Below, piece by piece: positions 1,304 to 51,514 of a stretch of 64,000 nucleotides of DNA. The notes under the pieces are model-generated. The model saw nothing but the letters and a program-made list of their open reading frames with translations, searched no databases and was not told the DNA's origin. Within the stretch, counting starts at the first letter, position 1; each line of letters opens with the position of its first letter. Made by a program: the position numbers and the translations under genes. The stretch comes from an uncultured Enterobacterales bacterium (GTDB lineage: Bacteria; Myxococcota_A; UBA796; UBA2385): assembly GCA_964599085.1 (NCBI GenBank), contig CAZRFD010000026.1, forward strand, positions 1,982 to 65,981, given 5' to 3'.

Positions 1304-4300
1304 ATGCACAGCCTGATCGCCCTGCTGCTCGCGGCTTCGTCCGCGTCGACGGCGCTGGACGTGCTGATCATCGACGACGGCGACAGCAACACCGGCGTGC
1401 TCACCGCCGAGCTGAACGGCCGCGGCCACAGCCTGACGAACTCCGACGATGACCTGGGCTTCACCGAAGACCAGTTCGAGGGCGACGAGGTCGACCTCAC
1501 GACCTTCGACGCCGTCATCTGGCTCGACGGCTTCACGGCGGTGCTCGACGAGATGCCGGACTCGGGCCAGGCCGCGCTGTTGGAATACGTCAACGCCGGC
1601 GGTGGGCTGCTGGTCTTCGGGTCGAGCGGCTACCAGTACGCCGCCTACGACTTCCACGCGACCCTGGCCGACGTGATCCCCCTGCGCAGCGACGTCATCG
1701 GTGACGCCGACGGCACGATCGTCTGCCTCGACGACACCCACCGGGTCGCCGCCGGCTGGGCCCTGGACGAAGAGACGGTGGTGTCCACGGGTGGTATCGG
1801 CGTGGATGCCGCCGCCTCCGGCGACGTGGTCTTCGGGGCGGTGACCAGCGCCGGCGACGTCTATGACGCCATCGTCGTGACGGAGCCGGGGGACGGCCGC
1901 AGCGTGCAGTACGCGTTCTGGGGCAACGCCACGGCCGCGGGCGCGGACTTCGAGACCGACTGGGCCGACGACGCCATCAGCGACCTCGTGGAGAACGGGC
2001 TGCAGTGGGTGGTCCAGCGTCCGCCGGAGGTCACCATCACCGCGTCCTGGACCGTCGGCGCCGGCGGGACGCGCACGCTGACCCCGACCAGCGCCTACGA
2101 CCCCGACGGTGGCAGCGTGACCCTGTCGTGGGACGTGGGCGGGGACGGCACCGAAGACGGCACCGGCGACAGCTTCGACTTCGTCGCGACGGACTACGAC
2201 GGGCCCACCGAAGAGACAGTGGTCCTCACCGTCACCGACGACGAGGGCGAGTCCAGCTCGGCGACGGCGACGGTCACCATCAACAACACCGCGCCGGTCA
2301 TCGACGAGGTCCCCGCCCCCGATGTCGTCGACGAGGGGAGCGACCAGGAGCTGACGCTGCTGTTCAGCGACGTCGAGTCGGCCGACACGCACGTCGTGAG
2401 CTGGGACTTCGGCGACGGGGACACGGCTGAGGGCAACCCCATCACCCACGCCTGGGTTGACGAGGGGCGCTACACCGTCACCGTGTCCGTCACCGATGAC
2501 GATGGCGGCACCGACAGCGCCGTGTTCACCCAGTCGGTCACCAACGTCGACCCGGCGCTGTCCGGCGACCCCGATCCCACCGCCACCCAGGGCGCACTGT
2601 GGAGCTTCACCCCCACGGTCGAAGACCCGGGAGTGGACGACGTGCTGACCTTCGGGGGGACCTGGCCCCCCGACGCCGAGCTCGATCCGGACACGGGCAC
2701 GCTGACCTGGACGCCGGGCAGCGACGCCGTCGGCCTGGAGCACACCTTCGTCCTGACCGTCTCGGACGGGGATGGCGGGGAAGACGCCATGAGCTGGACG
2801 GTCACGGTCGAGCTCGACGACGTCGACGGCGACGGCATGAGCGACTCCTGGGAGGACAGCTACGGCCTGGACCCGACCGACCCCGACGACGCCGCCGAGG
2901 ACCCCGACGGCGACGGGCGGACCAACCTCGACGAGTTCACCGGCGACAGTGACCCGACGACCTACGAGGGCCCCTCGCTGCCCACCCTGATCTCCCCCAT
3001 CGCCGACGAAGAGGTCGACGACCCCACGCCGATGCTCACCATCGGCAACGCCGACGCACCGCTGGGCCAGTCGGTCAGCTACAGCTTCTACGTCTACAGC
3101 GACGCCGAGCTCACCGACCTCGTCGCCTCCGTCACCGATCGGCGGGGCGGCAACTCCGGGCAGACCACCTGGACGATCACCGGTGTGAGCCTCAGCGAGA
3201 ATGCCGACTACTGGTGGACCGCCAGCGCCGCGGATGAGTACGTCGAGACGGCCACCGTTGACCCTGCCGAGAGCTTCTTCGTCAACATCGTCAACGAAGC
3301 CCCCGACGCCCCCGAGCTGTCGACCCCCTTCGACGGCGGCATCGCCGAGAGCCTGACCCCCCAGCTCGTGCTTTACGAGTCCAGCGACCCCGACCGGGAC
3401 CCGCTCACCTACAGCATCGAGATCACGGACGAGGCCGGCACGGCCTTGACGACGACCTCGGGGCTGACGGGGGACGGCAGCACGGTGGCCTGGGTGCCTG
3501 ATGTCGTGCTCAGCGACGAGACGACCTACTGCTGGACGGCGCGCGCCGTCGACGACGAGGGTCTGGAGAGCCCCGCCGCGACGCAGGCCTGCTTCTTCGT
3601 GGACCTGGAGAACGACCCGCCGACGATGCCCACCATCGTGGACCCGGCCGACGATGGCTTCGTGCAGACGCTGTCTCCCACCATCACCGTCGAAGACGGC
3701 GTCGACCCGGAGGGGCGGGCGACCATCGAGGAGTTCCAGCTCGACGTCAGCGACGCCTTCGACTCCGAGCTGCTCCAGATCGGGCAGGTCGACGTCGACG
3801 ACGACGGCACCAGCTCCTGGGTTCCACCCGAGCTGCTCACCGAGGACACGCGCTGGTACCTGCGGGTGCGCTGCAACGACGGCGGCGCGGCCAGCGACTG
3901 GGCCACCAGCTCGTTTGTGGTCTCCGCCGACAACGCCGCTCCCTCCATCCCCGAGCTGCTGTCGCCAGCGAAGGGCGACGAGGTGACAGACGCCCCCGGG
4001 CTGACGGTGGCCAACGCCACCGACCCGGAAGCCCGCGTCCTGACCTACGACTTCCGCGTGCTCGACCGCGCCGGCCAGGTGATCACCGAGACCAGCGGTG
4101 TGGCCGAGGGCAGCGACGGCGAGACGAGCTGGACCGCCGCCAGCCTGCCGACTGGCGTGTACACCTGGAGCGCGAGGAGCGTGGACGAGGACGGCGGCGA
4201 GAGTGAGTGGGCGCAGGCCGTGGTCTTCGCGGTGAGCGACGGAGGCGCCACCACGCCCCCCGGCGACGACACCGGTGGCGGGGGGCCTGGCTATGAAGCC

Positions 4301-7245: not shown

Positions 7246-9393
7246 ATGCCCTCTGCCCGCCGAAGCCGCCGTGACCTGCTGCGCGACTGCGCGATGTACC
7301 TGTCGCGCCGCCTGGGCCGCGGCCTGGCGCCTCCCGACCGGGTCAGCGTCAACCTCACCCTGCGCTGCAACCTGCACTGCACGATGTGCACGACCTGCTA
7401 CGACAGCCCGGAGCTGTCCACCGACGAGGTCAAGGGCATCATCGACCAGACGGCGGCCTGGGGGGTGGAGGTCTTCAACCCGCTGGGCGGCGAGCCCTTC
7501 ATGCGCGCCGACATCGAGGAGATCCTCGCCTACGCCGTGGCCCGGGGCTTCTACGTCACCGTGACCACCAACGGCACCTTGATCACGGAGAAGCGGGCGC
7601 GGGCCATCGCCGCGATCCCGGCGGACCGCCTGCACGTCAACATCAGCCTCGACGGCGACGAGGCCGCCAACGACGCCATCCGCGGGGCGGGCATGTGGAG
7701 GCGGGCGATCACCGGCTACCAGCGGATCCGCGCTGCCGACGCCGCCGCGGGCAACAGCCGCCGCAAGATCCTCGCCAACAGCATCCTGCACGCCGGCGTG
7801 CTCGACCGCTTCGAGGCCATCCTCGACCAGCAGGCCGCGCTCGGCTTCGACGGCGTGCAGATCCTCAACCTGTTCCGCGCCGGTCCGGACGTGCCCGCCG
7901 AGAGCCGCGCGCTGTGGTTCTCCGGCGATCAGCTCGACACGCTCGACGCGCTGGCCGGGCGCCTCGCCCAACGCGCCGAGACCCAGGGGCCCGCCGGCTA
8001 CCGGATCCAGAACGACCCGGGCGCGCTCCGCAAGATCCCGCGGTACTACCGCGACGAGCTGGGACCGCTGGAGGCGCCCTGCTGGGCTGGCTTCAAGGAG
8101 CTGTACATCAACGCCGACGGCGCCGCGATCATGTGCGACGGCCAGCTCGACTTCCTCAAAGGCAGCTTCGGCAGCGTCCGTGAGCAGACCCTGCGCCAGC
8201 TCTGGAGCAGCCCGCTGCTCGCAGAGCGGCGCGCCGTGGTGAAGGCCTGCACGACACCGTGCATCCAGGACTGCTACCTGCGGCAGCAGAGCGACTCGGG
8301 GCGGGAGCTGGTGGCCGACGCCGGACGCCTCGCCGCCGACCAGCTCCGGGCCCGGGTCGCGCGCCTGCGCCGCCGGGTGGAGCACGTGGACGGGGCGGTC
8401 CTGCGGCTGGAGCTGAGCGACGTGACCGACGCGCCCGCGCCGGGCTGCACGACCCCCATGTCCCGCTGGGAGCGCCTGGTGGAGGGGCTGCCGCAGGCCC
8501 CCTCGGCCGAGACCTGGGGTGCGCTGCGCGACCGTGGCTACCTCGACTTCGGGCGGGGCTTCATGGGCTTCGAGATCGTGCGCGCCGTCTGTGCGGACCT
8601 CGTGACGGCGCGCCTGCGCTTCGACACGCTGGCGCTGCGGTGGCGCGGCGAGCCGCTGCTGCACGGCGAGATCGAGCCGATCCTCTCCCACCTGCTCGAC
8701 CACGTGGCGAGGGGCGAGGTGGCGGGTCGGCTGCGCCTGGAGACGAGCGGCCGCTTCTACACCGACCCGCTGCTGGCCCTGGCCGGGCGCCCCGTGCCGC
8801 AGGACATCGTCGTCGACCTGGACCGCTGGGCCGGCTTCGATGGCGGCGGGGCATGGACGCCTGCCGCCGGGCTGCCCCCGGCGCTGCCCCGGCTCGAAGC
8901 CCTGGCCGGGCCCCACACCCGCATCCTGCTGACGGTCCGAGCGACCGCCGACACCGACGCAGCCGCGCTCCGAGCGCTGCGTCCACGCTACGCTCTCGCT
9001 GCGGGCCGCTACCCGGACACGGGCGACCGGGTCATCTTCGCCCGTCGGACCGACCACGATCACTTCCTGGCCAACCGCGACGCCAGGGCCGCGCTCGCTG
9101 CGGTGGCCGACGCCTGGGGAGTCCCCGTAGACCTCGGTGACGAGGACGGCCCGCGGCGCTGCGTTGCGCCTCGGCGCACCCCCACCGTGAGCTGGGACGC
9201 CAAGATCACGCTGTGTCCCCGAGACGTGCAGCTCCAGCAGCGGGTGGGCGAGGTGACCAGTGGCCGCCTCTCCGAGGTGTGGCGGGGCCCCGACCTGGAG
9301 GCCGCCCGGCGGCAGTGTGACGGCAGCGGTGTCCCCGACCGCGCGCTGTGTCGGGACTGCCCGTGGCCGTGGAGTCCGAACCTGCCGGGCTAG
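7246..9393 (+). CDS. Radical SAM / SPASM-domain protein, tandemly duplicated (second radical-SAM-like half has lost the CxxxCxxC cluster motif)
   Basis: First half: CNLHCTMCTTC (Cx3Cx2C), GGEPF, TVTTNGTLI, then SPASM-like cysteines (CWAGF...IMCDG...ACTTPCIQDCY). Second half (from about aa 400): FEIVRAVCADLV...GEPLLHGE...LETSGRF but no Cx3Cx2C, followed by a second SPASM-like tail (RRCVAP...AKITLCPRD...CDGSG...CRDCPW). Possible alternative start at M17 (MYLSRRLG). Confidence 0.8.
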   Translation: MPSARRSRRDLLRDCAMYLSRRLGRGLAPPDRVSVNLTLRCNLHCTMCTTCYDSPELSTDEVKGIIDQTAAWGVEVFNPLGGEPFMRADIEEILAYAVARGFYVTVTTNGTLITEKRARAIAAIPADRLHVNISLDGDEAANDAIRGAGMWRRAITGYQRIRAADAAAGNSRRKILANSILHAGVLDRFEAILDQQAALGFDGVQILNLFRAGPDVPAESRALWFSGDQLDTLDALAGRLAQRAETQGPAGYRIQNDPGALRKIPRYYRDELGPLEAPCWAGFKELYINADGAAIMCDGQLDFLKGSFGSVREQTLRQLWSSPLLAERRAVVKACTTPCIQDCYLRQQSDSGRELVADAGRLAADQLRARVARLRRRVEHVDGAVLRLELSDVTDAPAPGCTTPMSRWERLVEGLPQAPSAETWGALRDRGYLDFGRGFMGFEIVRAVCADLVTARLRFDTLALRWRGEPLLHGEIEPILSHLLDHVARGEVAGRLRLETSGRFYTDPLLALAGRPVPQDIVVDLDRWAGFDGGGAWTPAAGLPPALPRLEALAGPHTRILLTVRATADTDAAALRALRPRYALAAGRYPDTGDRVIFARRTDHDHFLANRDARAALAAVADAWGVPVDLGDEDGPRRCVAPRRTPTVSWDAKITLCPRDVQLQQRVGEVTSGRLSEVWRGPDLEAARRQCDGSGVPDRALCRDCPWPWSPNLPG

Positions 9394-9493: not shown

Positions 9494-11437
9494 TCAACCC
9501 CTGGTGTGCGGGGGGCGCAGCAGGCCGTCCTCGGGCGTGTAGCAGACGCCGTGTTCGTCGACGACGCGCCACTGCAGCCCATGCGGGATCCGGTCGACGT
9601 CGGTGTCGACCAGGAAGACCGTGCGGGCGATCGGTGCCGGTGCCGGCTGCGGACTGCCCAGCAGTGGGGCGAGGGTGCCGACGTCGGGGCGCTGGCAGAG
9701 GTAGATGGCGGCGATGTCGGGGGAGGGGACCGACAGTGCTGCGCCGGGGGGGAGCTCCGCGACCCGCGTGGCGTCGGCGACGACCCAGTCCGGCCAGGCG
9801 TCGCCGTCGTCGCCACCGCGGAGGCGCCAGACATCGCTGTACACCTCGGCGAGGCGGAGGTGTTCGAGGCGGCGGGCCGCCCGCTCGGCGAACAGCTCGT
9901 CGCCGAGGCGGGCGGCGAGCGCGGGCTGTTCGTCGCCCAGCACGTCGAGGAGGAGGGCGACGGTGGTGCCGCCGGCCGACCGGAAGATCCACCGGCGCAG
10001 CTCGCCGGCTGCGCGGTCGGCGCGGGCCGGGTCCGCCCAGGCCGCCCGCAGGCGATCGAGGAAGGCCGAGGCGGCGAGCCAGTCCTGCAGCAGCAGGTGG
10101 GCGAAGGCCACGCGGTCGTGGTCGCGGGGGACCAGCAGGCCCGAGCGGCGCACGGTCCCGTCGAGCAGGGCCCGGGCGACACCGTCGGGGTCGGTGGGAT
10201 GCCCCGCCGCGGTCACCAGCCTGTCGGCGTGGCGCGAGATGGTCTGCCGCGCGCGCTCGCGGGACCAGGTGGTGCCCACCTGGAGCTGGTCGACCGGGTC
10301 GTCGTCGGTGCCGCTGGACGAGTCCAGGGCCGTGCCGTCGAGGTCCGCGATGTCGGCGCGGCTGGCCCCCCACACCCGACGGCGGTTCATGGTCAGCGCC
10401 AGCTCCTGCAGGAGCCGGCGGCGGGCGGAGAGCGACAGTGCCGCGACGAGGGCCGGTCCGGTCTCGACGAGCACGGCGTCGACGACGCGGCCGAGGAGCT
10501 CGCTGCGACGCCGGGGCAGCAGGCCGAAGCGTCGATGGACCAGCGCCAGCAGCGTGAGAAGCAGCGGGTTGCCGGCGACGAAGGCCATGCCGGGGTCGGC
10601 GTCGATGGCCGACAGCAGCGCCGAGGAGAGGCGGTCGGCGTCATCGGGCGTGCGCCAGCGGTGCCAGCGCAGCGTCAGGGCGGCCCGGGCCTGGGGCGAC
10701 AGCGGCGTGATGCGGGCGGTGACGAGGTCGGTCGCCGTGGCGCCCTCGGCCAGGGGGACCTCGGCGGTGCCGCGCGGACGACTGGTGAGCAGGAAGCTGG
10801 ACCGTGGGTAGCGGGCCATGCCGTCGAGCAAGGCGGCGCGGAGTCCGCGGCGGAGCGTGGTGTCGGCCACCTCGTCCCAGCCATCGACCAGCATCATGAG
10901 CTGGCCGGCAGCACCCATGGCGTCGATCCGCTCCCGCAGCCCCGCGGGCCAGTCGGGGGCAGCGCTGAGCAGGCCGACCAGGGCGTCCCAGGTGTCGGTG
11001 TCGTCGGTGATCGGCAGATCGCGGAGGATGATCGGCAGCGGGATCAGGACGCCGATGCGCGCGTGCAGGGCGTTGCGGGCACGCTCGGCCAGCGTCCAGG
11101 ACAGCCACTGCACGAAGGTGGACTTGCCGGTGCCGGCGGTGCCCAGCAGCAGCACCCGCTTCCGGGCGGCCACCAGCAGCTCAAGCTGGTCGGTGCGGCC
11201 GCGGCGGGTGCCTCCATCGCCACCGGGCTGCTCCCAGTCCACGGAGGGCGGCACGTAGAGCTGGTCGATGGGGAAGTCTGCCCGCTCGTCGGCCCGGTCC
11301 AGGGCCAGCGTGTTGACGGTGCGGAAGCGCCGCCGCAGGGCGAGCAACCACGCGAGCACGGGCTCGTCGTTGTCCCGGTCGAGGAAGCGGTCGTACTCGG
11401 CCGGGGCGACGGGAGGCAGGGGCGGCCAGGTCGTCAC
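9494..11437 (-). CDS. NACHT-family STAND NTPase (no recognisable effector or repeat-sensor domain)
   Basis: GTG start overlaps the KAP gene stop (GTGA). Walker A VLLLGTAGTGKST, Walker B LMMLVDGWDEV, sensor-1 FLLTSRP, NACHT winged-helix motif VAFAHLLLQDWLAA. About 95 aa precede the P-loop and about 200 aa of unassigned C-terminus follow. ORF-track N-terminal extension (9494..12010) rejected because it overlaps the upstream KAP gene. Confidence 0.8.
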   Translation of the reverse strand: MTTWPPLPPVAPAEYDRFLDRDNDEPVLAWLLALRRRFRTVNTLALDRADERADFPIDQLYVPPSVDWEQPGGDGGTRRGRTDQLELLVAARKRVLLLGTAGTGKSTFVQWLSWTLAERARNALHARIGVLIPLPIILRDLPITDDTDTWDALVGLLSAAPDWPAGLRERIDAMGAAGQLMMLVDGWDEVADTTLRRGLRAALLDGMARYPRSSFLLTSRPRGTAEVPLAEGATATDLVTARITPLSPQARAALTLRWHRWRTPDDADRLSSALLSAIDADPGMAFVAGNPLLLTLLALVHRRFGLLPRRRSELLGRVVDAVLVETGPALVAALSLSARRRLLQELALTMNRRRVWGASRADIADLDGTALDSSSGTDDDPVDQLQVGTTWSRERARQTISRHADRLVTAAGHPTDPDGVARALLDGTVRRSGLLVPRDHDRVAFAHLLLQDWLAASAFLDRLRAAWADPARADRAAGELRRWIFRSAGGTTVALLLDVLGDEQPALAARLGDELFAERAARRLEHLRLAEVYSDVWRLRGGDDGDAWPDWVVADATRVAELPPGAALSVPSPDIAAIYLCQRPDVGTLAPLLGSPQPAPAPIARTVFLVDTDVDRIPHGLQWRVVDEHGVCYTPEDGLLRPPHTRG

Positions 11438-12813
11438 CGGGGCCGCTCCTCTCCGAGGTCCGCGGCTTCGACGGGGGCGGTCGGTGCGGGCGCTGGCGCG
11501 GCGCTGCGGCGAGTCGGCTCCCGACCCTGGAGCAGGCGGTACAGCTCCTGCTGGCGCGGGGTGGGGTGTCGCCGGACGAGGCGCGCGGCCCGAAACACCG
11601 ACACGTCCCCGGGATCGTGGAAGGTGGTGCCTTCTTCCGCCGTGAGCAGCGCGGTCCCGGTCGCGGGGTCCGCGGGTGCGATCCGGTCGGGCACGGTCAG
11701 CCCGGCGAAGACCGCGTGCCGGCGCTTCAGCACGGGCCCCTCTTCCGAGAACGCGTGGATCTCGGCCCAGAAGGCGGGGTTGGCTTCCAGCACCCGGTAG
11801 ATGGCGGGGTGGAAGGTCTGCAGCGCCTGGATGGTGCTGGCCAGCGAGATGTCGGGCGCTGCCCCGCCGAAGGTCCGGCGGTAGCCGTCGACGCGGCCGT
11901 GCAGCTCGACCATGAAGCGCTTGAGCTTGCGGGGGTTGGGCGGGAGGAAGTCCAGCGCGTCCTGGAGTTGGGCGATCTGCGCAGCGGCGCCGTCGCCGTC
12001 CGGCCAGCACGCCGACAGCAGGGGGCGCAGGTCGGGGGCCAGCGGCAGCGAGCGGACCGACTGGAAGAGCTTGTCGCTGTACTCGGCGGCGTCCAGCTCG
12101 GCCCGGGCCAGGCTGGCGGCGTCCGCGGCCGGGAAGAGCTTGCGCTGCAGGGCGCGGACGACGGCGCGCCGGTCGGCGGCGATCACGAAGACGCAGTTGT
12201 CGGCGTTGAGGTAGAGCTTGAGCCCCTCCAGCAGGCGGACGACGGCGTCGTCCCCGCAGCGGTCCAGGTCGTCGATCAGCACCACCAGCTTGCTGTGGTC
12301 GTCGGTCAGGGCGGCGATGGCCTGCTGGAAGGCGCTGCGGAAGGCTTCGCTGGTGAGCGGCACCGCGAAGCTGGACTGCTCGATGCGCTCGCCCTCGGCC
12401 CGGGCCGTCGCCACGACACCGTCGCGCTTGCTGCCGAGGCCTGAGAGCGTGTTGGCGAGGTCTTCGAGGAGGCGCAGGCCGGTGTAGGCCGTCACCGTGC
12501 TGAGCTTGCCGGCTTCATCCCAGGCCCGCCGCGACAGCGCGAGCTGGTCGCGGATGGAGTGGAGGAGCGCGACGGCCGGCTGGGCCTCGAACTGGTGGCG
12601 CCAGGCTTCGAAGAAGACGACCGTGCACTTGCGCGAGGTGTGGGGCAGCCGTTCGCCGAGCATGCGCAGGAAGCTGGTCTTGCCCGCACCCCAGTCGCCG
12701 TGGATGCCGAGCACGTAGGGGGGCGTGCAGGTGGCGATGAGATCGGCGATCTCGTCGGCGAGGGGGCCGCGGCCGAGGCGGTCTTCTGTCGTCGGTTCGT
12801 CGTTGAGCAGCAC
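11434..12813 (-). CDS. KAP-family P-loop NTPase (PifA / Kidins220 family)
   Basis: GTG start (VLLNDEP...) with GGAG about 9 nt upstream, 23 nt after the upstream gene stop. Walker A LGIHGDWGAGKTSFLRML. KAP-diagnostic Walker B VVLIDDLDRC. The Arg/Pro-rich 233-aa N-terminal extension of ORF 11434..13512 overlaps the upstream gene and is rejected. Confidence 0.8.
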   Translation of the reverse strand: MLLNDEPTTEDRLGRGPLADEIADLIATCTPPYVLGIHGDWGAGKTSFLRMLGERLPHTSRKCTVVFFEAWRHQFEAQPAVALLHSIRDQLALSRRAWDEAGKLSTVTAYTGLRLLEDLANTLSGLGSKRDGVVATARAEGERIEQSSFAVPLTSEAFRSAFQQAIAALTDDHSKLVVLIDDLDRCGDDAVVRLLEGLKLYLNADNCVFVIAADRRAVVRALQRKLFPAADAASLARAELDAAEYSDKLFQSVRSLPLAPDLRPLLSACWPDGDGAAAQIAQLQDALDFLPPNPRKLKRFMVELHGRVDGYRRTFGGAAPDISLASTIQALQTFHPAIYRVLEANPAFWAEIHAFSEEGPVLKRRHAVFAGLTVPDRIAPADPATGTALLTAEEGTTFHDPGDVSVFRAARLVRRHPTPRQQELYRLLQGREPTRRSAAPAPAPTAPVEAADLGEERPR

Positions 12814-12836: not shown

Positions 12837-14192
12837 TTACCGCAGCAGCGGCGAGTGGCGCCGCAGGGCGTCGATCTCGCGCAGCAAGGCCTTGTGCCGT
12901 GGGAAGCGGCGGCGCATCGCCATCAGCGGGGCTTCGGCCTGGGGATCGTCGGCGGCGACACCGGCTTCGACGAGGGCGACGGTGAGCGCGCCGATGCGGG
13001 TGTAGGCGTCGCGCGCGCGGGCAGCGATCACGGCGCCGGCGAGCTCGATCAGCTCGTTGGCGGCGGAGATGCGCCAGGCGACGGCGTCGGTCAGCCAGGT
13101 GGGGTGCTGGGCGATCACCCGGTCCATGAGCTGCGACCAGCCGGGCGGGACGGGGTCCGGTGGGCGGGGTCGCCAGCGGCCGTCGTCGTCGGTGGCCCGC
13201 CAGATGCGCGAGACCAGCAGCGCTTCGTCGAGGTCGGCGCGCTGGGTCCCGACCCGCAGCAGGAAGGGGATCACCTGGGTGGCGGGGTGCTGGGTATCGG
13301 TCCACCAGGACCGGCGCTCGGCGGCCTGCAGGCGGGCCAGGGGCAGCTCGGCGTCGCCGCAGAGCAGCTCGATGCGGACCTGCAGGTCGGGGGCGATGGG
13401 GCGCTCGTCGGCGTAGGCGGCCTCCAGCTCCTCGGCGAACAAGCCCCCGGCGTGGGTGCCCGCGGCATCCCAGACCATGCAGAGGCCGGCGGTGCACAGC
13501 CGGGTCCGCCACACCTCGCGCCAGGCGCGGTGGGCGGCGTCGACGCGACCCAGGGCGGCGGCGGCCGTGCCCTCGCGCAGGCGGAGCTGCAGGCGGTGTC
13601 GGGGCCAGTACAGGCTGCGGGCGCCGCTGCTGGCGGCGCGGAGCAGCTCTTCGTGGCGCCCCTCCTCCTGCAGGGCGTCGAGCCAGGCCAGCCAGACGTC
13701 GATCTCGTCCGACTGCCGGGCCAGGCTGGCCAGCCCGTCCGCTCCCAGGTCCAGGCGGAGGGCTTCCCGGAGCAGCCGGCCGCGGTCGGACTCGTGGTGC
13801 CGCCAGCGCCCGCCCCAGTCGCCGAGCGCCCGGGTCCAGCCGGGCAGGGTCGCGGTCAGATCCGGCGGCGGTGCGGGCACGAGCCGGATGACATCGTGCA
13901 GCGACAGCGTGGGGCAGAGGTCCAGCACCTCGAGGAAGGCGCCCTCGATGGCTCGTACGCGCTGGCGCCGCGGGTGATCCTCCCAGGCGGCACGCACGAG
14001 GGCTGCGCTGCAGCGCTTGATGTCGTCTTCGTGGTGGAGCAGCAGGCCGGGCTCGGCGCCGCGCAGGCCGGCGAGGATCGCCGTGGAGATCGACCCGACC
14101 CGTGGCCAGTGCCGCACGCCGATGGCGGACTCCAGCGCGGCAAGGCGTTCGCGGAGGGCCTGCTCCCAGGCCTGGCGGGAGGGGTCCGACAT
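12837..14192 (-). CDS. Hypothetical all-helical protein (Leu/Ala/Arg-rich, TPR/HEAT-like by composition), first gene of the KAP-NACHT operon
   Basis: ATG (MSDPSRQAWEQALRERLAALES...) lies 8 nt after the dapB stop. 451 aa with no recognisable motif. The ORF-track start at 14330 would overlap dapB by 130 nt. Confidence 0.6.
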   Translation of the reverse strand: MSDPSRQAWEQALRERLAALESAIGVRHWPRVGSISTAILAGLRGAEPGLLLHHEDDIKRCSAALVRAAWEDHPRRQRVRAIEGAFLEVLDLCPTLSLHDVIRLVPAPPPDLTATLPGWTRALGDWGGRWRHHESDRGRLLREALRLDLGADGLASLARQSDEIDVWLAWLDALQEEGRHEELLRAASSGARSLYWPRHRLQLRLREGTAAAALGRVDAAHRAWREVWRTRLCTAGLCMVWDAAGTHAGGLFAEELEAAYADERPIAPDLQVRIELLCGDAELPLARLQAAERRSWWTDTQHPATQVIPFLLRVGTQRADLDEALLVSRIWRATDDDGRWRPRPPDPVPPGWSQLMDRVIAQHPTWLTDAVAWRISAANELIELAGAVIAARARDAYTRIGALTVALVEAGVAADDPQAEAPLMAMRRRFPRHKALLREIDALRRHSPLLR

Positions 14193-14200
14193 CGGGCTGC

Positions 14201-14830
14201 TCAGGGGCGGTACAGACCGGGGGGCTGGGTCATGAGCCAGCGCGCGTGGCGCACGGCGCCGATGGCGAAGACCTCGCGTCGGGTGGCGACGTGCTTGAGC
14301 TCGAGCCGCTCGCCTGGACCGGCCAGCCACACGGTGTGCTCGCCGACGGTGTCGCCCAGCCGCAGGCTGTGCCAGGGCACGTCGGGCCGGCCGGTGGCGG
14401 CGATCAGGCGCTTCGCCGTGCCGCTGGGCGCGTCCTTCTTGTGGGCGTGGTGGGCTTCGACCACTTCGATGGACCAGCCCTGTGGCAGCCGCGGGACGAG
14501 CTGCGCGAGGACGTCGGCCAGCAGTGGCACCCCGGCGGAGAAGTTGGGGACGATGGCGACCGGCGCGCGCGCCGCGTAGGCGGCGAGGGCGTCCAGCGGG
14601 AGCGCGCCGGTGGTCCCGACGAGGAGCGCCTGGCCGTCGAGGCGAGCCAGCAGCGCGGCGGTGCCGGCCGCCGAGCTGACGTCGATGACGAGGTCACAGG
14701 GCGGCAGGAAGCCGTCGCGGCCGACGGGGCCGGCGTAGTCTTCGCCCAGCTCGTGGACGATGAGCCGACCGAGGCGGCCGGTGGCGCCGTGTACGGCGAC
14801 CGGCCGACGGTCCTTCTGGGGGCGGGTCAT
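14201..14830 (-). CDS. dapB: 4-hydroxy-tetrahydrodipicolinate reductase (short form)
   Basis: N-terminal NAD(P) fold VAVHGATGRLGRLIV. Signature EAHHAHKKDAPSGTA. 209 aa. Confidence 0.85.
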   Translation of the reverse strand: MTRPQKDRRPVAVHGATGRLGRLIVHELGEDYAGPVGRDGFLPPCDLVIDVSSAAGTAALLARLDGQALLVGTTGALPLDALAAYAARAPVAIVPNFSAGVPLLADVLAQLVPRLPQGWSIEVVEAHHAHKKDAPSGTAKRLIAATGRPDVPWHSLRLGDTVGEHTVWLAGPGERLELKHVATRREVFAIGAVRHARWLMTQPPGLYRP

Positions 14831-14873: not shown

Positions 14874-15767
14874 CTACTCCAGGCCGTCGAGCAGACCCGC
14901 GGGGGGCGATGCACCGGCCGCCAGGGGAAGCCGGACCGCGGCGTCGCACAGGCCCATGGCCGCCATGCCGGCCTTGACCGGGACGGGGTTGGTGTCCGAG
15001 AACAGCCAGCGCACCACCGGCTGCAGACGCTGGCGCAGCGCGCGCAGGGTCGCGACATCGCCGGTCCGTGCGGCGTCGCACCAGCGGACGGTCATGCGCG
15101 GGGCGAGGTTGCTGACCACGCTGATCACCCCGTGGCCGCCCATGGCGACCAACGGTGCGAAGGTGAAGTCGTCCCCGGACAGCAGGGTCACGGCTGCGCC
15201 GGAGGCGGCCCGCGCTTCGAGGGACTCCAGCAGCTCCAGGCCGTAGCCGACGTCGCCGGTGGCTTCCTTGACCGCGACGACGCCGGGGGTGGCACACAGC
15301 TCGGCGAGCTGGCCACAGGGCAGCCGCTGTCCGGTGCGGCCGGGCACGTGGTAGAGCACGACCGGCAGGCCAGCGGAGCATGCGCGCTGCACGTGGGCGG
15401 CGAGGCCGCGGGGGTTCGGCTTGTTGTAGTAGGGGAAGACGACGAGGCCGGCGTCGACCCCAAGCTCGGCAGCGGCGTCGATGTTGGCGAGGGTGGCGGC
15501 CGTGCTGTTGGAGCCCACGCCGGCGATGACCGGGACCTTGCGGCCGGTCTCTGCGTGGTGGCGCGCCGCGGCGTCCACGGCGGTGCGGACCACGGCGGCC
15601 CACTCGGTCGGTGACAGGGTGGGGGTCTCGCCGGTGGTGCCGCAGGGCACGAGCCCGGCGATCCCGGCGTCGAGCTGGCGGTCGCACAAGGCGCGGGTGG
15701 CGTCGAGGTCGACGTCGCCGGCGCGGAAGGGGGTGACCAGGGCGGTCAGGACGCCGGTGAGCTGCAC
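14874..15767 (-). CDS. dapA: 4-hydroxy-tetrahydrodipicolinate synthase
   Basis: TALVTPF, GTTGE, YNKP, and the active-site lysine in KEATGD. 297 aa. Confidence 0.9.
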   Translation of the reverse strand: MQLTGVLTALVTPFRAGDVDLDATRALCDRQLDAGIAGLVPCGTTGETPTLSPTEWAAVVRTAVDAAARHHAETGRKVPVIAGVGSNSTAATLANIDAAAELGVDAGLVVFPYYNKPNPRGLAAHVQRACSAGLPVVLYHVPGRTGQRLPCGQLAELCATPGVVAVKEATGDVGYGLELLESLEARAASGAAVTLLSGDDFTFAPLVAMGGHGVISVVSNLAPRMTVRWCDAARTGDVATLRALRQRLQPVVRWLFSDTNPVPVKAGMAAMGLCDAAVRLPLAAGASPPAGLLDGLE

Positions 15768-15782
15768 GCCGGACTCCAGGGT

Positions 15783-17153
15783 TCAGAAGGAGACGGTGCT
15801 CTGGAGGCGGACGCCGAAGGCGGTGCTGTCGAAGCCGCCGCCCAGCGTGTCGTCTTCGTAGTTCTTGTAGTACTTGCCGGGGAAGAAGGTCCCGAAGATG
15901 CCCTGCACGCCGAAGTGATCGAAGGGGTTGTAGTCGACCTGCAGGTCGAGCTCGCTGCCGTAGCCCTTGTTGGCGCTGTCGGCTTCCGGCAAGCGGGCGG
16001 CCTGGGCGGCGAACAGGCTGAGCCGGGCGGAGAGGTCGTCACGCACCCGGTAGCCGACGGTCGGCTTGAGGTAGACGGCGTTGGACAGGCCGTTGGCCGT
16101 TCGCACGGCGTCGGTGTTCAACCCCTGGTTGTTGTCGTTGTTCACCGACGCGCCCAGCAGCGGCATGGGCTGCTCGAACATCAGCAGGGCGACATCGAAG
16201 TCCGGGTCGAAGGCGAAGGTGTGGAGCTTCTTGTCGTCGGTGGACTTGTCGCCGCTGGCCAGGCCCAGCCCCACCCCGAAGATCAGCTTGTCGGCGTCGA
16301 CCTGGGCGTCGAGCATGGCGCCGAAGGCGCTGATGCTGACGTCGTTGGCGCCGGTGTCCAGGTCACCGGAGCCGAGCACCGAGGCGAATTCTCCCTCCAC
16401 CCGCACCGGACCGAGGGTGGCCTTGCCCCAGATGTCGCCGATGAACAGGCCGACCTGGTTGCCGTCGTAGTTCTGCCAGCGGTAGGTCCCGTAGCCGCCG
16501 ACGCTGGCCTGTTCGGTGAGGTGGGCGACGCTGGCCGTGACCGAGGGCATGTCGTCGCCCTCGCCCAGGTAGCCCTCGGAGGGGACGCCGTAGGCGCCCA
16601 TGACGTAGAGCGGGCCGGCCTTCCCGGTGAACTGGATGCGGTCTTCGGTGTCGCCTTGGTCGTTGCTGGGATCGTTGCCGGCGTTGAACACCATGCCGGA
16701 CCCCCACTGGACCGGCATCCGCCCGAAGCGCAGGCGTCCGATGTCGTGGAACCAGACTTCTCCCCACAGGCGGGAGAGCTTGATGTTCTGCAGCGTCGCG
16801 GCATCGTCGCCCGTGGTGGGAGGCTGCACGGCCTGGCTGTAGACCAGCGGCAGGTCGGAGCCGGTCGCCAGGTCGGTCATGGTGACCGGCGCGTCGCCCC
16901 AGACCACCGAGGGCAGCAGGTCGAGCTGGGTGTACAGCCCGACGTTTTCGGAGAGCAGGAAGCCCGGGCGCAGGCGCGCCTTGTGTTCGAACCACGACGA
17001 CGATCCGAGGGCGTTCGTGTTCGTGTCCGACAGGGACAGGCTGTTGTAGTAGTGGCCCTCGGCCCGGTAGTGTCCGTCCCAGACGACTTCGACGGCGGCC
17101 GCCGGAGTGCTGGCGAGGAGCGCGAGCGGGAGGAGCATGCGGGGAGCGTTCAT
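15783..17153 (-). CDS. Outer-membrane beta-barrel protein (porin-like), signal-peptide bearing
   Basis: Start at internal Met MNAPRMLLPLALLASTPAAAVEV (signal peptide). Alternating beta-strand pattern; C-terminal ...GVRLQSTVSF with terminal Phe typical of OMPs. Stop 15 nt before dapA start. Confidence 0.7.
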   Translation of the reverse strand: MNAPRMLLPLALLASTPAAAVEVVWDGHYRAEGHYYNSLSLSDTNTNALGSSSWFEHKARLRPGFLLSENVGLYTQLDLLPSVVWGDAPVTMTDLATGSDLPLVYSQAVQPPTTGDDAATLQNIKLSRLWGEVWFHDIGRLRFGRMPVQWGSGMVFNAGNDPSNDQGDTEDRIQFTGKAGPLYVMGAYGVPSEGYLGEGDDMPSVTASVAHLTEQASVGGYGTYRWQNYDGNQVGLFIGDIWGKATLGPVRVEGEFASVLGSGDLDTGANDVSISAFGAMLDAQVDADKLIFGVGLGLASGDKSTDDKKLHTFAFDPDFDVALLMFEQPMPLLGASVNNDNNQGLNTDAVRTANGLSNAVYLKPTVGYRVRDDLSARLSLFAAQAARLPEADSANKGYGSELDLQVDYNPFDHFGVQGIFGTFFPGKYYKNYEDDTLGGGFDSTAFGVRLQSTVSF

Positions 17154-17345
17154 GGGGTCGCTTTGCTCGCGTCGAACGTGCTTGCAGCGCCACCAGGCGC
17201 GAAGCGTGACGGGGGCCCGGAGGGTTAGCCTGCGGACCGGAGTGCGGCAAAGCTGGCCCTGGCTGGGCCGAGCGTCGGCGGCGACGCTCGCGGCACGAGC
17301 CTCCGCCCCGGCTATGATGCGTCGAAGAGGAGGCGGCACGACCTG

Positions 17346-17591
17346 ATGCTCTCGCTGCTCAAGACCCTGTGGCGCGGCTGGAAGGGCTTCGCGCACAAGC
17401 TGGTGGCCGGCCAGAGCTGGTTGCTCATGGCCATCGCCTACATCGTCGCCATGGGCCCGGCGTCGATCTTCATCAAGCTCAACAAGGAACGGCGCCTGGA
17501 CCGCGCACCGGCGGACCCGGGAGCTGCCACCTACGGCCTGACCGTCGAACACCGCCCGCCCGATGTCCGCCGGGCGCAGCGACCCTGGTAG
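17346..17591 (+). CDS. Small hypothetical membrane protein
   Basis: AGGAGG about 12 nt upstream; one predicted TM (SWLLMAIAYIVAMGPASIFI). 81 aa, no homology recognised. Confidence 0.35.
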   Translation: MLSLLKTLWRGWKGFAHKLVAGQSWLLMAIAYIVAMGPASIFIKLNKERRLDRAPADPGAATYGLTVEHRPPDVRRAQRPW

Positions 17592-46121: not shown

Positions 46122-49100
46122 TCAGTGGTTCTCGCTGTTGTCCGCAGCGTTCGAGCAGTTGACGTCGTCGGCGTCTACGCTACCGTCGCTGTCGTTGTCG
46201 ACACCGTCGTTGCACGCCGCCCCCGCCGGGTCGAAGCCGTCGTCTTCGTCTTCGACCCACACCGAGGTGCAGATGGGGTCGTCGAGGTCGGTCCAGCCGT
46301 CGCTGTCGTTGTCGAGCCCGTCGTTGCACTGGGTCGAGGGGTCGACCTCTGACTTGGTCGAGCCCGTCAGGCAGCCGGGGTCGTCGGCGTCGATGAAGCC
46401 GTCGGCGTCATCGTCGACGCCGTTGTTGCACTCCCCGCCCGCCAGGCCGTCGTCCTCGAACAGCTCGTCTGCCGAGGCGCAGACCGGATCGTCGGTGTCG
46501 GTCCAGCCGTCGCCGTCGTTGTCCAGCCCGTCGCTGCACTCCGGCGTGTGGGTCTCGTCGTCATCAAACGCGGTCGCACAGCCGGGGTCTTCGGCGTCGA
46601 CGAGGGAGTCGGCGTCGTCGTCCGTGAGGTTGTTGCAGGTGAAGCTGGCTTCTTCTCCGATCTCGGTCGTGCCCCAGGCGCAGTCGGGATCGTCGGTGTC
46701 GACCCAGCCGTCACCGTCGTCGTCGCTGCCGTTGCTGCACTCACCCGTGTCGCCGTCGCTCTCCGCGTTGTCGAGGGCGTCCACGCAGTCGACGTCGTCG
46801 GCGTCCGTCGCGCCGTCGCGATCGTTGTCGAGGCCGTCGTTGCACTCGGTGTCGCCGTGGCCGGCTTCGGCGGTGGCCGCGACGCAGTCGGGGTCGTCGG
46901 TGTCGATCCAACCGTCCGCGTCGTTGTCGCTGCCGTCGGAGCAGCTCGACGCCAGGTCGGCTTCCGACGTGTCGTCGCCGCTCAGGCAGCCGCTGTCGTC
47001 GGCGTCGATGAGCCCATCGCCGTCGTCGTCGAGGGCGTTGTTGCAGGCGAAGCTGGTGAACCCGAGCTCTTCGCCCCAGATCCCGCAGTCGGGATCGTCG
47101 TCGTCGGCCCAGCCGTCGTCGTCGTTGTCCGTGCCGTCGTCACAGGGCATGGCGTGGCTGGACTCCGAGTTGTCGTAGCCGTCGACGCAGTCAGTGTCGT
47201 CGGCGTCGATGGCGCCGTCCACGTCGTTGTCCAGCCCATCCGAGCACGCGGTGTCGGTCCGGGTGCCGTCTTCGGCGGCACCGTCCAGGCAGTCCGTGTC
47301 CGAGCTGTCGATCCAGCCGTCACCGTCGTCGTCGGAGCGGTTGCTGCAGCTCAGGCTGCTCGACTCTTCGTCGTCGTCGAGTGAGTCGTCGCAGTCGATG
47401 TCCCGCGAGTCGACGTCGCCGTCGGCGTCGTTGTCGATGAAGTCGTTGCAGGCATAGCCGCTGATGCCGGCTTCTCCACCGTAGATCCAGCAGTCCACGT
47501 CGTAGTCGTCGGTCCAGCCGTCGCCGTCGTCGTCGACACCGTTGTCGCAGGAGCTGGCGACCAGGGCGGTCTCGGTGTCTTCCCAGGGCACGTCGCAGTC
47601 GGGGTCGTCGGCGTCGATGGCGCCGTCGCCGTCGTTGTCCAGCTCGTCGTTGCAGGCGAAGCTGGTGAAGCCGAGCTCGTTGCCGCCGGTGAGGCAGTCG
47701 AGATCGTCGGCGTCCACCCATCCGTCGCCGTCGTCGTCTTCGCCGTTGGCGCAGTCATCGGCATCCGGGTCTTCGACCGGATCGGAGGCGGACTCGCAGC
47801 CGGTGTCCCACGCGTCGTAGACGAAGTTGCCGTCGTTGTCGATGCCGTCGTTGCACTCACCCGTTCCGAAGCCGCGCTCGGTGATGCCGCCGGCGTCGCA
47901 GTCGGGGTCGTCGAGGTCGGTCCAGCCATCCCCGTCGTTGTCGGTGGCGTCTTCGCACTGGCCGAGGTCTTCGTCGTCGACCAGGCCGTCGGTGCAGGCA
48001 GGGTCCAGCGAGTCGATGAAGCCGTCGCCGTCGTTGTCGACGAAGTCGTTGCACTCGGTGTCCTCGAGCGCACCGTCCTCGACGCCGAAGGCACAGTCGG
48101 GATCGTCGCCATCCACCCAGCCGTCGAGGTCGTTGTCGGCCCCGTCGGCGCAGGTGTCGGTCGACTCGGCCTCGAGGGTGTCCGAGGCGTCCTGGCAGTC
48201 GAGGTCCTCGCCGTCGATGGCGTCGTCGAGGTCGTCGTCGATGCCGTTGTTGCACTCGGTGTCGCCGTAGCCGACCTCTGCGTCGCCGCTGGCGCAGTCG
48301 GGATCATTGGCGTCGATCCAGCCGTCGCCGTCGTTGTCCAGCTCGTCTTCACAGTCTGTGATCGGCGAGCTCTCGTCGTCGTCGTAGCCGTCGGTGCAGC
48401 CAGGGTCGTCGGCGTCGACGAGGCCGTTGCCGTCGTTGTCGTTGCCGTCGTTGCACTCGTAGACCGACGTCGCCGGGGATTCGGTGCTGGTGTCGTAGTC
48501 AGCGAAGCAGGCCGGGTCGTCGAGGTCGGCCCAGCCGTCGCCGTCGTTGTCGACACCGTCGCCGCAGGCGGCGTCGCCCTCGTAGTCGTCGCTGCCGTCG
48601 CTGCAGTCGACGTCGTCGGCGTCCACCGAGCCATCCTTGTCGTCGTCGACGCCGTTGTTGCAGGCGTAGCTGGTGTCGATGTCGACTTCTTCGTCGCCGC
48701 TGCTGCAGTCGGGATCGTCGGCGTCGGTCCAGCCGTCGTCGTCATCATCGAGGCCATTGTGGCAGGCGTCGACCTCGGCGTCGTCGGCAGCTTCCAGGCA
48801 GTCGGGATCGACGGTGTCGATGGCGCCGTCGCCGTCGTTGTCGCTGCCGTCGTTGCACTCGGTGCTGCCGAAGCCCGCTTCGGCGTCACCGGTCACGCAG
48901 TCGGGGTCGCTGCTGTCGATCCAGCCGTCACCATCGTCGTCTTCGCCGTTGGTGCACTGGTCGACCTCGTCGTCGTCGCTGGCGCTGCTGCAGCCGGAGT
49001 CTTCGGAGTCGACCGCCCCGTCGCCGTCGTCGTCGACGCCGTTGTTGCACTGGGGCCCGTCGGTGTCGAAGCCCAGCTCGTTGGCGCCGCTGCTGCAGTC

Positions 49101-50408: not shown

Positions 50409-51514
50409 GGCACGTCCACCACGATGTCCCCGGCGGGGATGGGGTCGGGAATTGTAGCGTTGTAGGCGATGATGCCGCCGGTTGTTCCGGCCGCCGCGAC
50501 GGCGCCGGCGCCCGCCCAGAAGGCCCAGGAACGGGTCAGTGGCGTGTAGGCCTTGAGCTCGGCGCGGTCGTCGCTGAGCTTCGCCTTCCACCAGGCACCG
50601 CCGGTCTCGGGGATCTCGATGCGCGCTTCGACCGACTGGGCGCCTGGCGCCGAGACCGACAGCGTGTAGCGACCGCGCTCGAGCTCGGGCAGGCGCACGC
50701 TGCGCCCCGCGCCGACCTGGACGCCGTTGAGGCGCACGGTCGCGTCGTTGTCGTTGGTCTTGACCGTGAGACCGGCGCCCGACTCGGACAGGCGGACGTT
50801 GACGACCCCCTTGCTGCCGTCGGTGGTGTCGACGGTGCGGAGGATCGTGGCGTAGCCCTTCATGTCGAGGAGGACCTGGTGCATGCCGGGATCGATGCCC
50901 TCGAGCTGGACCGGGGTCTGGCCGACGCCGCGTCCGTCGAGGAAGACCTCGGCGCCCTCGGGGCGTGACGTGACGCTGAACCGGCCGCTGCTGCTCTCGA
51001 GCTGTTCGACCAGCAGCAGGTTCTTGCCCGGCTGGAAGTCGAACTCACCGTCGTCTGGTTCGTGGGCCGGTGCTTCCAGGTGCCACTTGTAGGTGCCCGG
51101 CTCGAGCTGGCGCAGCCGCACCGGCGTGGGGTACTCGTCCCTTCCGTTGAGCGTGAGCACAGCACCCGCCGGATCGACCACGAACTCGACCGTGCCGCCG
51201 CCCGGGAGCAGGTCTGCGGCCAGCTCGGTCGTCCGACCACGGCTGATGTTCACGCGGCGCACGAAGGGGTCGTAGTGGTCCGCAGCCACGCGGACCGTGT
51301 GGCTGCCCTGCGCGACGTAGGTCGTGATCGGTGCGTCGCCGAGGAGCTCGTTGTCGACGTAGACGACCGCGCCCTGGACGGGGGCGGTCACTCGCAGCAT
51401 GCCCGTGTCGTCTGCGTGGGCTGGCGCTTCCGTGGCGGCCAGCGTCGCGGCAAGGGGCAGCGCGATGAGGGTCGGGAGGAGGAGGACGCGGAGGGCAGAG
51501 GTCAGTGAGCGCAT
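50405..51514 (-). CDS. PEGA-domain protein (secreted, C-terminal TM)
   Basis: Signal peptide MRSLTSALRVLLLPTLIALPLAATLAA. PEGA motif SRPEGAEVFLDGRGVGQTPV with three further PEGA-like beta-sandwich repeats. C-terminal WAFWAGAGAVAAAGTTGGIIAY TM. Confidence 0.75.
   Translation of the reverse strand: MRSLTSALRVLLLPTLIALPLAATLAATEAPAHADDTGMLRVTAPVQGAVVYVDNELLGDAPITTYVAQGSHTVRVAADHYDPFVRRVNISRGRTTELAADLLPGGGTVEFVVDPAGAVLTLNGRDEYPTPVRLRQLEPGTYKWHLEAPAHEPDDGEFDFQPGKNLLLVEQLESSSGRFSVTSRPEGAEVFLDGRGVGQTPVQLEGIDPGMHQVLLDMKGYATILRTVDTTDGSKGVVNVRLSESGAGLTVKTNDNDATVRLNGVQVGAGRSVRLPELERGRYTLSVSAPGAQSVEARIEIPETGGAWWKAKLSDDRAELKAYTPLTRSWAFWAGAGAVAAAGTTGGIIAYNATIPDPIPAGDIVVDVP

Follow-up and report, generated by a model that had tools for sequence, protein, structure and literature searches.

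To our knowledge, nearly all characterised bacterial proteins that resemble receptors with a nucleotide-binding domain plus leucine-rich repeats (NLRs) carry their effector in the same polypeptide. The locus described here lies in a 64,000-nucleotide stretch of DNA from an uncultured Enterobacterales bacterium (assembly GCA_964599085.1, contig CAZRFD010000026.1, positions 1,982 to 65,981), referred to below as the window, and encodes a NACHT protein without a fused effector directly downstream of a gene for a KAP-family P-loop NTPase. Antiphage activity has been established by experiment for bacterial NACHT proteins (Kibby et al., bioRxiv 10.1101/2022.07.19.500537), some of which have short nonrepeat C-terminal extensions and one of which, bNACHT01, is not in an operon according to its description. 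The same holds for KAP NTPase proteins (PMC13552941), which need their NTPase as well as an attached region of unknown function. No paper describing a pair of KAP and NACHT genes was found among those searched; a listing in the supplementary tables of large surveys of STAND (signal-transducing ATPases with numerous domains) proteins is possible. We consider it probable that the window protein is the NLR half of a conserved, translationally coupled KAP-NACHT module, in which its leucine-rich repeat (LRR) sensor has been cut to a remnant of ~100 amino acids (aa) and KAP serves as the output. This conserved module is a more interesting result than the window gene itself, which, taken alone, belongs in reduced form to a known superfamily and is no new kind of protein.

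Like the bNACHT proteins (e.g., the LRR-bearing bNACHT16), the window protein has a NACHT nucleotide-binding oligomerization domain (NOD) with intact Walker A and B motifs, sensor arginine, and winged-helix domain (WHD) histidine, and its clade relatives have C-terminal LRRs; unlike those proteins, it has no fused effector and appears to be obligately paired with KAP, and it is from them that we infer an antiphage role for its clade. With bNACHT01 clade 14 (SNaCT) it shares a length of ~600 to 650 aa, the lack of a recognisable effector, and a short C terminus that does not look repetitive. It differs from bNACHT01, which was compared by description only, in a tail that aligns with LRR units and in nearest relatives that are LRR-bearing and KAP-paired, and the nature of these relatives argues against membership in clade 14. 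The animal proteins NLRC4, NOD2, and NLRP3, its best structural matches, have the same order of nucleotide-binding domain (NBD), helical domain 1 (HD1), WHD, and helical domain 2 (HD2) followed by LRRs, which in the present case are found in clade members; the differences are the low identity (~11 to 15%), the absence of a CARD or PYD adaptor, and an internalin-type LRR of 22-residue units, of which a remnant would be left in the window protein. The KAP partner has a KAP_NTPase domain, as have the defence KAPs PifA, QatA of QatABCD, PDC-S20, and EF_KAP (PMC13552941), and differs from all of these in the absence of a transmembrane (TM) insert and of a large fused region of unknown function and in its pairing with a NACHT protein, which is unreported for them.

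Assignment of the locus to a known defence system was rejected, as PADLOC and NCBIfam yielded only domain-level matches to KAP proteins (PDC-S20, QatA, and PifA). For QatABCD, model NF041923 scored 118.8 bits (cut-off, 600), and QatB, QatC (QueC-like), and QatD (TatD) were not found, the neighbours being dapB, a gene for a 451-aa protein, the NACHT gene, and a radical SAM gene. The Avs families were discarded because the window NACHT protein has no fused N-terminal effector and no PADLOC Avs match at E ≤ 0.01. These searches also bore out the statement of the initial annotation, which had been made from the sequence alone, that nuclease and protease motifs are absent: no such domain was found in Pfam.

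The elements of the gene pair are as follows.

9494..11437, minus strand: NACHT (NLR-like STAND) gene, 647 aa, with a GTG start at 11437 and the stop codon at 9494-9496; assigned by G+C content at third codon positions (GC3), Pfam, and AlphaFold2 (AF2)

11446..11454, minus strand: sequence resembling a ribosome-binding site, GGAGAGGAG, 8 nt 5' of the NACHT GTG and within the end of the KAP gene

11434..12813, minus strand: KAP-family P-loop NTPase gene, 459 aa, soluble, no extra domain (Pfam KAP_NTPase, 1e-28)

As read from the sequence, the GTG start of the NACHT gene shares the tetranucleotide GTGA (11434..11437, minus strand) with the TGA stop codon of the KAP gene, which suggests translational coupling. 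The KAP protein scored 100.9 bits against PF07693 (cut-off, 20) and has the Walker A motif GDWGAGKTS and the Walker B motif LIDDLDRC; no solved structural relative was found for it by sequence search. TM helices in or near the NTPase domain are common, though not universal, in the KAP family. No TM segment was detected in the four partner KAPs that were checked (maximum 19-residue Kyte-Doolittle mean of 1.12 to 1.29), and partner KAPs were uniformly ~460 to 520 aa long and lacked any further Pfam domain.

The pairing was found in both directions of search. Upstream of the gene for P0002, a 763-aa NACHT-LRR protein and the nearest homologue in our first search, a gene for a 493-aa KAP lies at a distance of 3 nt, its product being 32% identical to the window KAP. 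Among 80 genome loci collected with the clade profile, KAP was directly upstream in 15, all of which belonged to the 23 closest, and an all-against-all comparison of open reading frames (ORFs) in 17 paired loci identified KAP and NACHT as the only genes shared. A scan of metagenome contigs with a KAP alignment yielded 410 matches, of which the best 80 loci were examined; in 63 of these the contig extended at least 600 nt past KAP, and in 61 of the 63 NACHT followed directly, mostly overlapping KAP by 4 nt or separated from it by a few nucleotides. The pair was present in metagenome-assembled genomes of Planctomycetota, Acidobacteriota, Verrucomicrobiota, Proteobacteria, Spirochaetia, and Armatimonadota. 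It was also found on four IMG/VR viral contigs (L177 to L180; loci collected here carry such L numbers), ~1.1 kb from the contig end in L177 to L179 and internally in L180, a placement compatible with prophage-borne cargo. The window locus has the features by which the module was defined, namely a same-strand KAP gene directly upstream, an overlap or gap of a few nucleotides, and a NACHT protein with less than ~135 aa before the P-loop. Judged by gene neighbourhood, KAP is the obligate partner of this NACHT clade, and the association of the two genes is tight and reciprocal in many phyla. In two loci (L143 and L173), the NACHT ORFs after KAP were only 227 and 332 aa long; these may be frameshifted or decaying copies.

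KAP appears to take the place of the fused N-terminal effector that is missing from the paired NACHT proteins. In the 80 genome loci, all 15 KAP-paired NACHT proteins had 75 to 132 aa before the P-loop, versus ~170 to 613 aa in the 65 unpaired proteins, with the exception of L020 (124 aa), L045 (152 aa), and L057 (cut by the contig end). Among close relatives without KAP, N-terminal fusions to Metallophos (L007) or DUF4062 (L011, L015, and L024) were identified, and L018, L019, and L027 had N-terminal regions of ~250 aa without a domain assignment. In a neighbor-joining tree of the NOD, the paired proteins formed one clade with L007 and the pair L011/L015 nested inside, and this nesting suggests that KAP in trans and an effector in cis have replaced each other at least twice. 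As patterns across genomes, these comparisons demonstrate both the gene pairing and the swap between KAP and effector. The suggestion in the initial annotation that an effector or output role is split off onto the co-operonic KAP NTPase thereby gained support from the reciprocal pairing, the short N termini (15/15 of the paired proteins versus ~2/65 of the unpaired ones), and the nested fusions without KAP.

The NOD of the window protein was divided as follows.

11159..11437, minus strand: residues 1 to 93, alpha/beta N-terminal extension of the NOD, conserved in the clade, no effector (homology and predicted local distance difference test [pLDDT])

10658..11158, minus strand: residues 94 to 260, NBD with Walker A G99-T107 (K105), Walker B D185/D188/E189, and R220 (Pfam PF05729)

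10058..10657, minus strand: residues 261 to 460, HD1 and WHD, with RRSGLL (430 to 435) and FAHLLLQDW (H447) (invariant columns and AF2)

9818..10057, minus strand: residues 461 to 540, HD2-like helical subdomain linking the WHD to the sensor (homology, pLDDT, and position)

Pfam NACHT (PF05729) matched residues 94 to 260 with 45.4 bits (cut-off, 26.7; E of 1e-11), and Pfam, NCBIfam, and PADLOC gave no other match to the protein; for the 93 N-terminal and the 167 C-terminal aa taken separately, Pfam gave none at E ≤ 10. The P-loop GTAGTGKST occupies residues 99 to 107, and 200 aa remain after H447 of the WHD motif, so that the lengths given in the initial annotation (about 95 aa before the P-loop and about 200 aa after the winged-helix motif) are confirmed by the domain coordinates. 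In an alignment of 56 clade sequences, G99, G102, G104, K105, D185, G186, D188, E189, R220, and H447 were invariant, as were R431, G433, L434, and F445. An AF2 model built with this alignment had a mean pLDDT of 79 and a predicted template modelling score of 0.79 (pLDDT of 39 from the single sequence) and was confident from residue ~11 to 520, except for a loop at 372 to 387, and poor beyond 520. Foldseek searches with the whole model returned NLRC4 (4kxf), NOD2 (5irm), and NLRP3 at E values of ~1e-9 to 1e-11 (best, ~3e-11). By its predicted structure, the window protein is a true member of the NACHT clade of STAND proteins, with an NBD-HD1-WHD-HD2 fold. Residues ~461 to 540 are read as the HD2 subdomain because of their position after the WHD in a model that as a whole aligned to NLRC4 and NOD2, which would leave ~105 to 125 residues of true C-terminal extension; pLDDT in this region was 84 to 91 up to residue 510, 73 for 511 to 520, and low from ~520.

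The N terminus was described in the initial annotation as devoid of an effector. The profile searches agree, no effector domain of the kind found in tripartite STAND proteins being recognised in the 93 aa before the NBD; these residues are not, however, an empty stub but a part of the NOD that is conserved in the clade, beginning at residue ~11 to 30, and also in the effector-fused relatives. Matches by BLASTP and phmmer began at query residues 5 to 30 in most relatives, at a similar position in the match, and effector-fused relatives aligned from query residue ~30 onward. Homologues mostly had ~75 to 134 aa before the P-loop (a few had 196 to 452 aa), and, given these lengths and the starting points of the matches, a short N terminus is the norm for the clade. 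In the AF2 model, pLDDT was 77 to 97 at residues 11 to 70 and dropped to 58 at residues 71 to 80.

Sequence searches placed the window protein in a clade whose members are longer. A protein identical to it (P0001) was present in public protein collections, and a word-indexed search of 5.8 billion proteins retrieved only an identical copy and 20 distant NACHT proteins, all longer (763 to 1129 aa) and with LRR, FGE-sulfatase, HEAT, or other domains. Exhaustive phmmer searches of 1.84 billion cluster representatives gave 7464 matches, the best 36% identical, and none of the top 150 had its best-scoring stretch extend beyond query residue ~520; homology to P0002 and P0003 ended at query residues 503 to 522 (BLASTP and phmmer). 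The clade consensus runs from HGYIRFLGLPxL..PDVPIxxLYVEP through the NACHT motifs to RRSGLLLPRG..FAFxHLSFQEYFAA, a helical stretch, and then repeats, which are tandem 22-residue units of the form LxxLxxLxLxxxxxxDLxPL; internalins matched the repeat part of the clade profile. Pfam LRR_4 was found in 36 of the 55 closest homologues. That most clade members have a C-terminal LRR of their own speaks against the proposal of the initial annotation that the sensor has been split off to another protein. A subgroup of paired NACHT proteins (L017, L028, L112, L115, L119, L136, L146, L150, L155, L168, and L170) had 477 to 535 aa after the WHD without a match to the clade LRR unit, which suggests a different C-terminal sensor within the KAP-NACHT family.

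The C-terminal end of the window protein is likely an LRR sensor worn down to two or three degenerate units and a conserved tail.

9497..9817, minus strand: residues 541 to 647, degenerate LRR remnant, with units VVADATRVAELP (551 to 562), IAAIYLCQRPDVGTLAPLLG (575 to 594), and RTVFLVDTDVDRIPHGL (604 to 620), followed by the conserved tail QWRVVDEHGVCY

No significant match of the C-terminal ~100 residues was obtained with BLASTP against the LRR of P0002 or with phmmer and blastp against 170 homologues. Closer relatives were reached via homologues of the gene for the 451-aa protein: four contigs from three distinct relatives (L086/L087, L095, and L096), all with the order dapB-451aa-KAP-NACHT, whose NACHT proteins had probably been missed by the protein searches because the ORFs run off contig ends. 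Identity to the window proteins was 48 to 59% for NACHT, 58 to 72% for KAP, 64 to 78% for the 451-aa protein, and 76 to 80% for DapB. The C-terminal end of the L096 protein consists of textbook clade-type LRR units, LAFVRCPALTDLGPLAGAGELRALYLVDCPGIVDLTPLGN, and that of L086 has the units LRVVELHGCHQLARFDDLPHLAAIYIMGCPAVSTLASLSG. The window unit IAAIYLCQRPDVGTLAPLLG aligned onto LAAIYIMGCPAVSTLASLSG and LRALYLVDCPGIVDLTPLGN of the orthologues L086 and L096, and together with RTVFLVDTDVDRIPHGL (residues ~575 to 626) it aligned with their LxLxxCxxxxDLxPL units. The L086 protein has 68 additional residues in the tail region, one extra LRR unit among them, and it shares with the window protein the tail WRVVDEHGxCY, the last 30 aligned residues being 63% identical, more than the protein average. 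A hidden Markov model (HMM) of the clade LRR unit scored 15.8 bits with the L096 tail (0/200 shuffles as high), 3.9 bits with the L086 tail (3/200), and a weak 2.5 bits with the window tail (1/200); Pfam LRR was negative on the L086 and L096 tails as well. In the AF2 model, the tail was of low confidence (pLDDT of 35 to 59), with strand-helix-strand elements at 575 to 580, 586 to 593, 604 to 610, and 623 to 626. After the WHD histidine, the window protein is the shortest of 47 complete paired NACHT proteins, the other 46 having a median of 434 aa (range, 262 to 557). The remnant is graded as likely, not as proven, because the assignment is based on transitive orthology. That no LRR periodicity is visible, as the initial annotation stated, is true for profile tools; residues ~575 to 626, however, align with LRR units of the orthologues.

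How the module would work can be outlined from STAND and NLR proteins. A paired NACHT protein, without a fused effector, normally ends in an internalin-type LRR or another sensor of ~500 aa, a region that differs between members by gain and loss of repeats, and in the window lineage this sensor would have shrunk by loss of units to the ~100-aa remnant. The remnant and HD2 may hold the ADP-bound NOD closed, as in STAND/NLR proteins generally; binding of a trigger, most plausibly a protein of a phage or other invader, would open the NOD, ATP-dependent oligomerisation of NACHT would follow, and the oligomer would engage KAP, which would supply the output given in cis by Metallophos or DUF4062 in the sister proteins. 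By analogy we infer which way the signal runs, what triggers it, and the role in defence (antiphage or conflict). The pair has the flavour of a conflict system: it lies in a variable slot, filled in a relative by a Phd/PIN toxin-antitoxin pair, and it occurs on the four IMG/VR contigs. Several points weigh against this reading. The context is one of housekeeping genes (dapA, dapB, aspartyl-tRNA synthetase, SelB, and a TonB-dependent receptor) with no defence island; neither KAP nor NACHT has a toxic or enzymatic effector recognisable with Pfam beyond the NTPase; the NACHT partner is not covered by any PADLOC v2 model; contact between KAP and NACHT is proposed from the gene pairing; the NOD neighbor-joining tree is crude and lacks support values; and the LRR in the window protein itself is weak by Pfam, HMM score, and AF2 confidence. 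A broader form, according to which KAP-NACHT is a widespread immune module of two NTPases in which the NLR passes its signal in trans to a soluble KAP and the window NLR works with two or three degenerate LRR units, is advanced tentatively, as we hold it to be rather less probable than its negation.

The roles of the two proteins may also be reversed, with KAP as the sensor or regulator and the NACHT oligomer as the executor or scaffold, so that sensing by KAP would permit loss of the LRR. We regard this as unlikely, although the LRR loss in the window lineage would be easier to understand if KAP were the sensor: the window NACHT protein is nearly without LRR, and yet the pair has been kept in the four contigs of its diverged relatives. 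KAP has, in addition, a C-terminal region of ~150 aa free of any assigned function, and KAPs studied by experiment need an attached region besides their NTPase (PMC13552941). However, most NACHT members keep long and variable C-terminal regions, LRR or other, at the position usual for a STAND sensor; KAP diverges more slowly than NACHT between the orthologues (the identities given above); and KAP swaps with domains in the N-terminal effector position, not with C-terminal ones.

Decay of the window gene, with loss of the LRR ending its sensing and the protein nonfunctional or on its way to a pseudogene, is improbable. It would fit with the C terminus being the shortest among the complete paired proteins, with altered clade-typical residues beside Walker A (LGDPGSGKS to LGTAGTGKS), and with the short NACHT ORFs in L143 and L173. 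The reading frame, however, contains no frameshift or premature stop, all invariant catalytic positions are kept, and the GTGA coupling to KAP is retained; GC3 was 0.94 in the NACHT frame up to the stop codon, so the entire ORF including the C terminus reads as genuine coding sequence. The ORF was also open across all recovered sequence in the orthologues (L086, L095, and L096, at ~50% divergence; in three of the four contigs the gene is cut off by the contig end), and the well-conserved end shared with L086 argues in the same direction. For dN/dS, a JGI contig (L004/L005) was uninformative, being 100% identical in DNA to the window, and the orthologues, at ~50% aa divergence, were too far apart for a meaningful dS. 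The initial annotation had named a truncated pseudogene of a longer homologue as the finding that would overturn it; the gene is indeed shortened relative to longer homologues, but with its catalytic motifs all intact and the ORF open in diverged orthologues it is, on the sequences compared, a shortened derivative and not a pseudogene.

We give as little credence to the idea that residues ~541 to 647 are a compact domain of a new kind, a sensor or tether without relation to LRR and comparable to the SNaCT of bNACHT01-type proteins. Its attractions are the lack of any Pfam or profile match, the top 150 phmmer homologues that stop by residue ~520, the WRVVDEHGxCY tail conserved with L086, and the precedent of short C-terminal extensions (Kibby et al.). 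They are outweighed by the collinearity of the tail with clade-type LRR units in L096 and L086, by nearest relatives that have LRRs and not short extensions, and by AF2 secondary structure of beta-alpha-beta type in an LRR-like register, in a low-confidence region. The alternative put forward in the initial annotation, that the whole C-terminal 200 aa is a new domain, is not sustained either, since ~80 aa are assigned to HD2 and the remainder aligns with LRR units of the orthologues.

The 451-aa helical protein, to which the initial annotation had assigned a share in sensing or effector function, is encoded next to the pair, downstream of two dap genes.

12837-14192, minus strand: 451-aa protein, no Pfam match, 23 nt upstream of KAP

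14201-14830, minus strand: dapB (frame analysis and Pfam)

14874-15767, minus strand: dapA (frame analysis and Pfam)

Homologues of this gene were 59 to 78% identical and always located directly after dapA-dapB. The gene was absent from every KAP-NACHT locus outside the close relatives, in the 17-locus ORF comparison and in the closest genome loci, and it followed dapB also in relatives without the pair (L088, L089, and L091 to L094; 59 to 67% identity). The slot 3' of it was filled by KAP-NACHT in four contigs, by a PhdYeFM/PIN toxin-antitoxin pair in L092 to L094, and by unrelated genes in L088 and L089, and looks like a small hotspot for accessory genes; examples are as follows.

9494-12813: slot in the window

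2151-2776: slot in L092

9604-10764: slot in L088

From its distribution, the 451-aa gene is a core gene of the lineage beside a variable slot and not a component of the system, and its conservation, higher than that of the pair, is as expected for such a gene. A three-gene system in which the 451-aa protein supplies the sensor or effector is therefore very improbable and was rejected: the gene lies on the same strand just 5' of KAP, in an arrangement kept in L086/L087, L095, and L096, but it is missing from all other KAP-NACHT loci and is conserved after dapB where the pair is missing. The 451-aa protein may have a link to the dap genes. The dapB-like gene encodes only 209 aa (relatives are annotated with 207 to 214 aa) and matched only positions 68 to 124 of the DapB_N profile; it represents either a short N-terminal Rossmann part or a miscalled start.

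The window has a G+C content of ~72%, and dapA, dapB, the 451-aa gene, KAP, and NACHT form a run of minus-strand genes. Some further features were observed. A radical SAM/SPASM gene (7246-9393, plus strand) faces the NACHT gene tail to tail, the two stop codons being 100 nt apart; its product of 715 aa is long for the family, and matches to radical SAM maturase models were limited to the N-terminal ~170 to 320 aa. Upstream of dapA, a 589-aa protein (15783-17552, minus strand) had a partial match to TIGR04551 (123 bits; cut-off, 300) and no Pfam match. An ORF of 1489 aa (46122-50591, minus strand), without a Pfam match at E ≤ 1e-5, lies where the AT skew in the window is strongest (-0.30 to -0.38).

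If the module reading is true, an obligate pair of an NLR and a KAP ATPase would amount to the effector-NOD-sensor design in a naturally split form, and KAP NTPases, whose role in phage defence was suspected for a long time and demonstrated only recently, would gain a defined signalling partner. Since no recognisable toxic domain is present in the module, a new effector mechanism might come to light once its output is worked out. The window protein would then be either a minimal LRR sensor or a protein whose sensing has been handed to KAP, and, as a naturally minimised case, it may indicate the amount of LRR that a NACHT switch requires to be autoinhibited and to sense.

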